From assembly GCA_016187125.1 (NCBI GenBank), contig JACPKF010000001.1, positions 238,178-302,177 of the forward strand: 64,000 nt of DNA, in the 5' to 3' direction. Under the pieces are notes generated by a model. That model had not been told where the DNA came from. It made no database searches and saw nothing but the letters and a program-made list of their open reading frames with translations. Below are positions 56,958-58,192 of the stretch, in pieces (position 1 is the stretch's first letter; each line of letters starts with the position of its first letter). This stretch comes from Candidatus Saccharimonadota bacterium (GTDB taxonomy: Bacteria > Patescibacteriota > Saccharimonadia > Saccharimonadales > UBA10212). Both the position numbers and the translations under genes were made by a program.

Positions 56958-57070
56958 CGCGTTAGACCTCCAAAAGACAACCAGAGATTATTTTTGTGTT
57001 GAAGCAAGCACCGTGGTTCAAACGTAAACCATTGTTCGGAAGCAAAGTGGAGTCTAACGGGACTCATCAG
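56958..57070 (-). repeat. 113-nt repeat copy A, immediately upstream of atpD (contains its SD)
   Basis: About 84% identical by eye, with no gaps, to 58080-58192. GGAGGTCTAACGCG lies next to the ATG. The complementary CCCGTTAGACTCC lies 91 nt upstream on the mRNA strand. Confidence 0.8.
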
Positions 57071-57227
57071 ATTCTACCTCTCTTCGAGTCTGAGCCTGAG
57101 GGCTCATCCCTCAGAGTCGAATGACAGGTAAAATCAGCTGATAGCGTGCAGAGTACGGCGTATAGATTGACGGCAATTGCTGAACTCTGAAACCTGAAAC
57201 CTGAACCCTGATGATGAGTAAAGCGAA

Positions 57228-58079
57228 TCATAGTTGGTTTCCACCACGCAAATTATTTAGCAGTTCTTTTAGTCGCTCGTCCTTAATGTGCCGTTTAGCG
57301 TGGGCATACAGGCGATTGAAATCTGTGTAGGAGTCGTCGGCTTTCTCATGGGCCATTCTCATAGCTCGAAAACGGCTGGCATATTGTGCCAGTTTGGACT
57401 CCAGAATAACTTCGGACAGGGCAATCTGCATCATGGAACGTTCCAGGTGGTCAATAACCGCATGGGGGCTTGGCTCAAAAATATAATTAGCTTCGGTAAT
57501 AATTTCGGCTCCTGGTTTGACCTTAGCGCTCAGCCGCTCGACAGCCGTACCAAGTTTTATAGTTTTAACCGCCTGGTTCATCAGCGACATATAGCTTTGG
57601 TAATAAACGATCGTCGAAACATATTTTTGCACCTCGTTGACTAGTGGCTCTACATTAATATTTTGTTCGCTTTCCGGCAGCGTATAAGTCCTGGCAAAAC
57701 CTACACCTGCCTGCAGTAGTTGCACCGCGCCGTGGCGGCCAATAACAACGATATCATTTGCCTCCGACTTATAATCCATCAGAGCTTGGGCTACCAGTCT
57801 TTGGTCAATATCACCACTGAAACTTGACTCTGAGGTAATTAAAATCATCAGTTCTTTATTAATTAACTTAATGTTACCGCCACGCCCGAAATGAAATTGT
57901 TTGTCGATACGAATCTGATTATAAATTTGCCAAAGGTCTGCGAAAAATTTTTCGCTGCGTTGCACCTGGTCTTTAACCTGAGCAATCTTGGTAGAGGCAA
58001 TACCCTCAAAAGCACTGGTTAGTTCAATCAGTATGGCGGCCGCTTGGCGTTGGTGCGCTATATCAGTCAACTGTCTCAT
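57228..58079 (-). CDS. atpG: F-type ATP synthase gamma subunit
   Basis: 283 aa. Sits between alpha and beta. The N-terminal IxxxxxIxxITxAMxxVAxxK-like region and a C-terminal helix ending KELLNNLRGG are gamma-like. Confidence 0.8.
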   Translation of the reverse strand: MRQLTDIAHQRQAAAILIELTSAFEGIASTKIAQVKDQVQRSEKFFADLWQIYNQIRIDKQFHFGRGGNIKLINKELMILITSESSFSGDIDQRLVAQALMDYKSEANDIVVIGRHGAVQLLQAGVGFARTYTLPESEQNINVEPLVNEVQKYVSTIVYYQSYMSLMNQAVKTIKLGTAVERLSAKVKPGAEIITEANYIFEPSPHAVIDHLERSMMQIALSEVILESKLAQYASRFRAMRMAHEKADDSYTDFNRLYAHAKRHIKDERLKELLNNLRGGNQL

Positions 58080-58192
58080 CCCGTTAGACCTCCAAAAAAC
58101 AAACAGCGATTATTTTTGCGTCGAAGCAAGCACAGAGGTCCAAATGTAAACCAAGGTCCGGAAGTTAAGTGGAGTCTCATGGGACTCATGAG
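58080..58192 (-). repeat. 113-nt repeat copy B, immediately upstream of atpG (contains its SD)
   Basis: GGAGGTCTAACGGG lies next to the ATG. The distal partner CCCATGAGACTCC is at the same 91-nt offset and overlaps the atpA stop. Confidence 0.8.

Follow-up and report, generated by a model that had tools for sequence, protein, structure and literature searches.

Here we describe a short DNA element with complementary ends that has inserted on the start codons of atpG and atpD, the genes for the gamma and beta subunits of the F1 ATP synthase, and of a third gene in a 64-kb stretch of contig JACPKF010000001.1 from a Candidatus Saccharimonadota bacterium (64,000 nucleotides, hereafter called the window). 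We find insertion with duplication of the target, a widespread family of such elements in metagenomes, their location on start codons, a covarying stem, and an excess of open reading frames (ORFs) that run from the old start codon through the element. The explanation that we favour, and that we consider probable, is that of a non-autonomous element of ~105 bp, resembling MITEs (miniature transposable elements with inverted repeats), with hairpin ends, which inserts on start codons and is tolerated via relay translation, that is, by ribosomes that would read such a relay ORF up to the gene. The complementary ends, which an earlier note on this DNA had put forward as a candidate device that hides the Shine-Dalgarno (SD) sequences of the two atp genes, are best explained as an insertion element's terminal inverted repeats.

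Filled and empty sites

The genes atpA and atpG are separated by 106 nt in the window, and atpG and atpD by 270 nt, as the earlier note had given. The duplicated element that it reported in these two gaps is real: a repeat search aligned 56953-57079 with 58075-58201 without gaps at 83% identity (84% by MAFFT; 85% over 115 nt by blastn). The complementary ends were also confirmed, both copies terminating in TTGGAGGTCTAACG(G/C)G-ATG and starting with the complementary CCC(G/A)T(T/G)AGACTCC. The 5' start of the element is CCCATGAGACTCC in the atpG copy (copy 1), whose 5' arm has two mismatches to the core of the family described below, and CCCGTTAGACTCC in the atpD copy (copy 2). Coordinates of these features are collected in Table 1.

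We compared the atp operon with that of 16 relatives, namely nine GTDB species representatives, in which AtpG is 50-54% identical to that of the window, and seven closer relatives from a protein collection (73-88%). In all 16, atpA, atpG and atpD overlap by 4 nt or 1 nt, with no spacer and no element between them. At the atpA/atpG junction the relatives read ...ctc ATGAG acag... (empty site ctcATGAGacag), and the window reads ctcATGAG, the 105 nt of the element (TCCC...CGGG), and then ATGAGacag. The upstream ATGAG is the original start codon of atpG, which still overlaps the TGA stop of atpA and opens a relay ORF of 37 codons (ORF37a), and the A of the downstream ATGAG doubles as the final base of the terminal inverted repeat. 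At the atpG/atpD junction the window has ATGAT, a stretch of 159 nt, ATGAG, the 105 nt of copy 2 and again ATGAG, followed by cgctgg (the two ATGAG lying at 57063-57067 and 56953-56957), where the relatives have one (A/G)TGAG.

A third copy lies on the start codon of a gene for a DsbD/CcdA-like membrane protein, between ATGGC (5921-5925) and ATGGA (6003-6007). Its relay ORF (5921-5998) terminates at a TAA within the 3' arm. In relatives in which the protein is 85-91% identical, the site is empty (...gaggatatatagccc ATGGA attagtc) and the upstream gene ends 3 nt from a single (A/G)TGGA. Because the relatives show empty sites, all three copies in the window are lineage-specific insertions on start codons. 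A search of the window for other copies with nhmmer and blastn, using the two atp copies, returned only the arms of copy 3. Weak short matches near 30.2-30.4 kb were considered as a further copy and rejected, being ordinary ABC-transporter coding sequence.

A family on start codons in metagenomes

To sample the family, metagenomes were scanned for the pattern TCCCGTTAGA-N57-87-TCTAACGGGA, that is, for perfect 10-nt arms with 57-87 nt between them. The matches listed, to which the counts below refer, comprise at least 120 loci with 127 elements; four additional matches came from viral contigs. The loci range from 29 to 65% in GC content. An exact protein look-up put a name to the hosts of five of them: candidate division Kazan, Doudnabacteria, Jorgensenbacteria and Paceibacterota, which all belong to the candidate phyla radiation (CPR), and Sedimentisphaerales (Planctomycetota). 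Several loci hold two to five copies, as the window holds three.

In 103 of the 127 elements, the terminal A and the next two bases form ATG, against ~12% expected by chance, and 93 of these 103 are followed by an ORF of at least 60 codons. The genes downstream, as far as their translations could be read by eye, are ordinary and unrelated housekeeping genes (among them valS, secY, purD, gap, rpiB, pyrG, murC, ftsW, gmk, rplQ). In 83 of 130 elements an exact 4-nt direct repeat stands immediately on either side of the inverted repeat; TGAA is the most frequent (49 of the 83), followed by TGGA, TGAG and TAAA. The base before the left repeat, in gene orientation, is A in 61 cases, G in three and T in two; as it is never C, every upstream copy is a valid start codon. 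At five sites there is GTG or TTG upstream and ATG downstream, which shows that the new ATG owes its A to the terminal base of the element. The duplication tracks the target and not a consensus of the family, since it is ATGAG in the window and its relatives, and ATGAA is the family consensus. The 20 nt upstream and the 15 nt downstream of this site show no further target signal.

The terminal inverted repeat of 13 bp consists of the conserved core TCCCGTTAGA/TCTAACGGGA (10 bp) and three base pairs that are variable and yet complementary. Positions 11-13 of the stem are Watson-Crick paired in 94, 93 and 88% of elements; all four types of pair occur there, and pairing at positions 14-16 falls to 40, 35 and 23%. 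The interiors are almost all unrelated to each other: only five similar pairs were found, three of them neighbours within one locus. Loci L098 and L113 carry members of the same subfamily as the atp copies (alignment z = 6-9), in opposite orientation with respect to their genes, gap and rpiB, and the relay ORF is open in both despite this orientation. L034 and L108 are likewise inverted in this way.

Some members depart from the simple arrangement. L139 (3735-3828), L043, L067, L057, L107 and others contain arms that are nested or in tandem, and mini-hairpins of 24-30 nt that consist of arms alone, for example CCCTGTTAGAGGTTTACCTCTAACAGGG; in L057 and L107 one element lies within the arm of another, with a duplication of TTAG. 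At least one member, in L073 (5484-5589), lies on a stop codon instead of a start: the TAA terminating an ORF of 692 codons is part of the duplicated ATAAA, and the next gene begins 12 nt downstream.

Relay reading frames and access to the start codon

The 3' sequence TCTAACGGGATGA contains TAA (of TCTAAC) in one frame and TGA (of ATGA) in the second, and the third runs in frame into the gene. A ribosome crossing the element in one of the first two frames would thus stop close to the real start and could re-initiate there. Of the 69 elements with an upstream ATG, 39 (57%) have no stop in the relay frame before the 3' arm; 21 of these frames end at the TAA, 12 at the ATGA overlap and one 16 nt past the ATG, and five are in-frame fusions. 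For comparison, the other two sense frames of the interior are open in 9/69 and 12/69 elements (13-17%), the antisense frames in 16-18/69 and shuffled sequences in 14%, the difference between the relay frame and the other sense frames giving p = 1.7e-9 in Fisher's test. Where there is no upstream ATG, the corresponding frame is open in 7/24. This excess of open relay frames supports the view that translation through the element matters. We also considered that the element might be open on both strands in general and rejected this, the antisense relay frame being open in 16/69, like other antisense frames.

The minimum free energy (MFE) fold of each atp copy contains the end-to-end helix, and the centroid fold keeps it in the atpD copy only. 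The probability that the SD region is unpaired, as predicted by partition-function folding, is 0.12 for atpG, 0.19 for atpD and 0.01 for the third gene, compared with 0.25-0.51 at the empty sites of relatives.

A probable course of events, with relay translation as the most likely mechanism, can be drawn from these features. The element inserted exactly at the start codons of atpG and atpD, duplicating the target TGAG, and its terminal A together with the duplicated TG recreated the ATG of the gene. The original ATG is retained upstream with its native ribosome entry, made up of the old SD and of the preceding gene's stop, which overlaps the start. Ribosomes that initiate at this ATG would read the short relay ORF across the element and in doing so unwind the terminal stem, which otherwise might bury the new SD and AUG, and they would stop beside the gene's ATG (at TAA or ATGA) or, in the third frame, read on into the gene. 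From the sequence we infer that the relay ORF is translated, that re-initiation takes place and that the hairpin forms in the mRNA; the insertions are probably tolerated because ribosomes read through the element and restart on the gene.

Organization of the atp operon

Table 1. Positions of the elements, their flanking start codons and the associated genes and reading frames in the window
Feature	Position	Strand	Remarks
Element copy 3 (77 nt)	5926..6002	+	perfect 13-bp terminal inverted repeat TCCCGTTAGAGCT/AGCTCTAACGGGA
atpD (F1 beta subunit, 442 aa)	55629..56957	-	orthologue in L014 with PF00006 and PF22919
Relay ORF37b (37 codons, MSPVRLHFAS...GGLTR)	56954..57067	-	ATG overlaps ORF54 stop (TGATG), TGA overlaps atpD ATG
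Element copy 2 (105 nt, TCCCGTTAGA...TCTAACGCG)	56958..57062	-	on atpD start codon
ORF54	57067..57231	-	covers the whole 159-nt spacer; starts on atpG stop (ATGA), ends on ORF37b ATG
Extra 159-nt spacer	57068..57226	-	between atpG stop and copy 2; flanks ATGAT / ATGAG
atpG (F1 gamma subunit, 283 aa)	57228..58079	-	PF00231; NCBI name F0F1 ATP synthase subunit gamma, Candidatus Saccharibacteria bacterium
Downstream ATGAG at copy 1	58075..58079	-	present atpG start codon; right copy of target-site duplication
Relay ORF37a (37 codons, MSPMRLHLTS...GGLTG)	58076..58189	-	ATG overlaps atpA stop, TGA overlaps atpG ATG
Element copy 1 (105 nt, TCCCATGAGA...TCTAACGGG)	58080..58184	-	on atpG start codon
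Upstream ATGAG at copy 1	58185..58189	-	left copy of target-site duplication
atpA (F1 alpha subunit, 478 aa)	58186..59622	-	PF00006 on the identical gene in L011

The wider of the two gaps holds, besides copy 2, a spacer of 159 nt, which contains a 7-nt tandem repeat and an imperfect hairpin of ~64 nt. The tandem repeat, noted earlier, is real (57187-57211, 3.6 copies). No sequence similar to this spacer was found elsewhere in the window or in the fetched loci; it is probably an older or different insertion at the same atpD start codon. Since ORF37a, ORF54 and ORF37b fill both gaps, the atp operon is an unbroken chain of frames that overlap by stop and start.

The Logan short-read contigs that carry the window's own atpG (L011-L013) all stop 131 nt past the atpG stop, just before copy 2, and contain nothing beyond the window sequence. 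These assemblies may have been broken by the repeated element.

Discussion

Several observations weigh against the explanation as a MITE-like insertion tolerated via relay translation. A stop interrupts the relay frame in ~43% of the elements that have an ATG upstream, and relay translation is therefore not obligatory. The folding energies of the whole element are no better than those of shuffled sequence (z = -0.21 and -0.92). Of the 53 window ORFs that reach 100 aa, 50 (all apart from atpA, atpG and atpD) were searched with Pfam and yielded no transposase or recombinase, and arm pairs 600-3000 bp apart in the fetched loci enclose ordinary genes, as judged from N-terminal sequences, and no mobilising enzyme, within what is a small search space. 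It may also be that the preference for TGAA together with purifying selection falls short of explaining the near-exclusive location on start codons. The sample of the family, at least 120 loci among the matches listed, is biased by the pattern of perfect arms 57-87 nt apart, and from the source genome three copies were seen, within 64 kb.

The two atp copies might instead be a cis-regulatory RNA dedicated to the atp operon, in which a helix between the SD and a complementary sequence tunes translation of gamma and beta for subunit stoichiometry. F1 is composed of alpha3-beta3-gamma, and the elements do sit in an operon where stoichiometry matters. The earlier note had proposed a candidate translational control or stoichiometry device of this kind, working by occlusion of the SD through end pairing, and had named relatives that lack the element, with no effect on operon organisation, as evidence that would speak against it. 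Part of this proposal stands, in that the helix is present in the MFE folds and the SD regions are predicted to be mostly paired, and a helix that occludes the SD is plausible as a prediction of folding models. The atpG copy, with its two arm mismatches, lacks the helix in its centroid fold. The role of a conserved device in the operon does not hold, because the element is absent from all 16 relatives, which keep overlapping genes; the empty sites largely refute it. The same type of element moreover occurs at unrelated genes and in other phyla, and it lies in both orientations with respect to the gene. At the covarying positions, the pairs that are not Watson-Crick, counted on the sense strand, are G-U in five cases and A-C in five, and in these small numbers there is no sign of selection on the stem at the RNA level. 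Searches of Rfam with the whole window at the gathering threshold, and with both element regions at E values up to 10, returned only tRNAs and chance matches to snoRNAs and miRNAs, and the element does not behave as a conserved cis-regulatory RNA of the Rfam type. Taken together, a regulator dedicated to atp seems very unlikely. Still less credible are two paralogous genes for small proteins of 37 aa with a function in or near the ATP synthase, although both ORFs are intact, start with ATG and show translational coupling at either end. Between the two peptides 13/37 residues differ, and between the DNA copies ~18/113 positions (counted by eye), which is not the pattern of purifying selection on a peptide. 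Of the encoded residues, only those from the arms (M-x-P-V-R) are found again across the family, the interiors being unrelated; the peptides of subfamily members in opposite orientation are unrelated too, and the ORFs are absent from relatives. We rejected the small-protein hypothesis, as the peptides are not conserved.

A local duplication without mobility, in which illegitimate recombination between the two ATGAG start sites carried one spacer over to the next junction, would account for two copies 1.1 kb apart with the same flanking ATGAG, and similar copies tend to be neighbours elsewhere too (L060, L137). Local hopping of a mobile element predicts such clustering equally well. Duplication would leave unexplained the first insertion, the third copy, which lies 50 kb away and is unrelated although its arms are the same, and the many independent elements with matching 4-nt duplications at different targets, and we consider it unlikely, if slightly less so than the two preceding possibilities. 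More serious, though we would not expect it to prove right, is the possibility that the same element is moved by a structure-specific enzyme acting on the folded hairpin and not by a DDE transposase, either a tyrosine recombinase, as at integron attC sites, or an HUH nuclease, as for REP/REPIN sequences. Three stem positions vary and remain complementary, pairing ends sharply at 13 bp, and the interiors show an extreme variability like that of attC sites; GTTAGAN/NTCTAAC in the arms agrees with the core-site consensus of integrons, GTTRRRY/RYYYAAC (PMC8876359), and the inferred head-to-tail junction of arm, TGAA and arm resembles the core site of a recombinase. Yet the order of the two boxes is the reverse of that in attC, whichever strand is read, the arms lack the GTAG tag of REPs, the window was found to contain no gene for an integrase or HUH nuclease, and exact 4-nt duplications are the classic signature of staggered-cut transposition. 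We therefore take GTTRRRY/RYYYAAC in swapped order as a lead and not as integron membership. It is because of the sharp 13-bp stem with three covarying pairs and of a core identical to the integron core-site consensus that a structure-recognising enzyme is suggested at all. On this basis one might tentatively go further and propose, as something rather more possible than the bare change of enzyme, an undescribed multi-phylum family of hairpins that homes to start codons, is made harmless by the rebuilt ATG, the stops in two frames and the relay ORF, and owes its movement to an enzyme that recognises structure and has yet to be linked with elements of this sort.

As to known systems, the MITE-like insertion shares several features of MITEs. 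It is small and has no transposase coding capacity (77-105 bp, the only ORFs being of 25-37 codons and unconserved), it has terminal inverted repeats (10 conserved and 3 covarying bp), and duplication of the target site is seen from filled and empty sites in the three window comparisons and in 83/130 family members. A cognate autonomous insertion sequence with the same inverted repeats was not found among the window ORFs and distant arm pairs, which form a small search space. The Correia elements of Neisseria and the ERIC/IRU elements of enterobacteria are likewise small, with terminal inverted repeats, a short target-site duplication and no transposase gene; their presence, too, varies between relatives, and they are transcribed together with flanking genes and can fold into an RNA hairpin. 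The elements described here differ from both in that they sit precisely on start codons, where the terminal A and the duplicated TG rebuild the ATG, in having stops in two frames of the 3' arm beside the start and an excess of open relay ORFs, and in conserving only 10 bp of the arm, followed by three covarying bp and an almost free interior. In a 2024 review of prokaryotic MITEs the term 'start codon' does not occur (PMC10969869). Full-text searching, whose coverage leaves out most subscription journals, found no published description of a family of start-codon elements, and it is apparently an undescribed, widespread variant of MITE-like elements that sits on start codons.

Tolerance through translation has precedents. 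Rickettsia palindromic elements (RPEs) are palindromic mobile elements that are tolerated inside essential genes of small genomes as they stay translatable (PMC10969869). By this description the present elements are similar, being palindromic, mobile and apparently tolerated through translatability. RPEs insert in frame inside coding regions and join the protein, whereas the present elements lie on the start codon; because the relay ORF mostly ends just before the gene, the protein would be left unchanged (in-frame fusions being 5/69). The case of attC and ORF-11 in integrons is the closest documented analogue of the proposed relay mechanism. There, attC stem-loops block ribosomes, and ORF-11 or short ORFs within attC, the stop codon of the short ORF lying inside the GTTRRRY core, restore expression by termination and re-initiation (PMC8876359). 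Integron attC/attI sites and the present elements thus have in common a recombination-site hairpin between genes and a short ORF that ends next to the downstream start and would couple translation (PMC8876359). There are also differences: there is no integron context, the core boxes are inverted with respect to the 5' RYYYAAC and 3' GTTRRRY of attC, no integrase was found in the window, and in place of sites in a cassette array next to intI the elements are single insertions in core operons, with 4-nt duplications on ordinary chromosomal start codons. Nor do they resemble REP/REPIN sequences mobilised by RAYT, which carry a conserved GTAG/CGTC tag beside the hairpin, are extragenic and make no duplication; here the arms are TCCCGTTAGA, 4-nt duplications are present and the window holds no Y1 transposase.

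Translational coupling through a sequestered SD is known from atpH-atpA and rpmI-rplT of E. coli and from the coat and replicase genes of phage MS2. The likeness lies in a downstream start held in a helix that is opened by ribosomes on the upstream frame. There, the helix belongs to the operon as an evolved and conserved component, in contrast to the present helix, which comes from a recent insertion and is absent in sister lineages.

If the proposed relay is correct, selfish DNA may colonise essential and tightly packed operons of very small genomes, such as those of Saccharibacteria and other CPR bacteria, by means of translational re-initiation and with no obvious harm. The family would offer many natural cases for studying the coupling of upstream ORFs and the occlusion of start sites. 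On the practical side, the elements give rise to spurious small ORFs and make start codons ambiguous, they apparently turn GTG or TTG starts into ATG, and they lie close to the end points of short-read contigs of the source organism. They also caution against taking lineage-specific hairpins between cistrons for evolved regulators.

Other possible inserts and repeats in the window

Copy 3 lies in a cluster of genes (4818-7461) for an ArsR/YHS regulator, a membrane protein, the DsbD-like protein and a redoxin. The database relatives of this cluster are 85-91% identical, much closer than those of atpG (88% at best, then 85%), and its neighbouring genes differ between relatives. The cluster may be a laterally shared island.

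Between an aminotransferase gene and the first atp gene lies a foldback element of 175 nt (61835-62009, minus strand) with terminal inverted repeats of 24 bp that are 96% complementary, its 5' arm providing the final codons and the TAA stop of the aminotransferase ORF. At this site L015 and L016 have a spacer of 48 nt and L144 a different one of 240 nt, and no relatives of the foldback element were found in any fetched sequence.

A perfect palindrome of ~24 nt, TGTGATAGGTTTAACCTATCACA, occurs in frame in three minus-strand genes, those for the NAD-dependent DNA ligase (ligA, 11130-11159), uvrA (35093-35122) and mnmA (54283-54312), and encodes (N/S)VIGLT(Y/S)HK each time. The 8 residues of the palindrome are absent from the MnmA orthologue in L014, and L016 has a different insert at the same spot; the palindrome looks like an RPE-like in-frame mini-insertion. 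The mnmA gene (53590-54705) contains a second insertion of 8 residues, WRLPAGRQ (columns 268-275 of alignment A2), which is missing from both relatives. Finally, an ORF of 954 aa on the minus strand (39735-42599), for which Pfam gave no match, contains several families of internal direct repeats, including Gly-rich units with a period of 39 nt.

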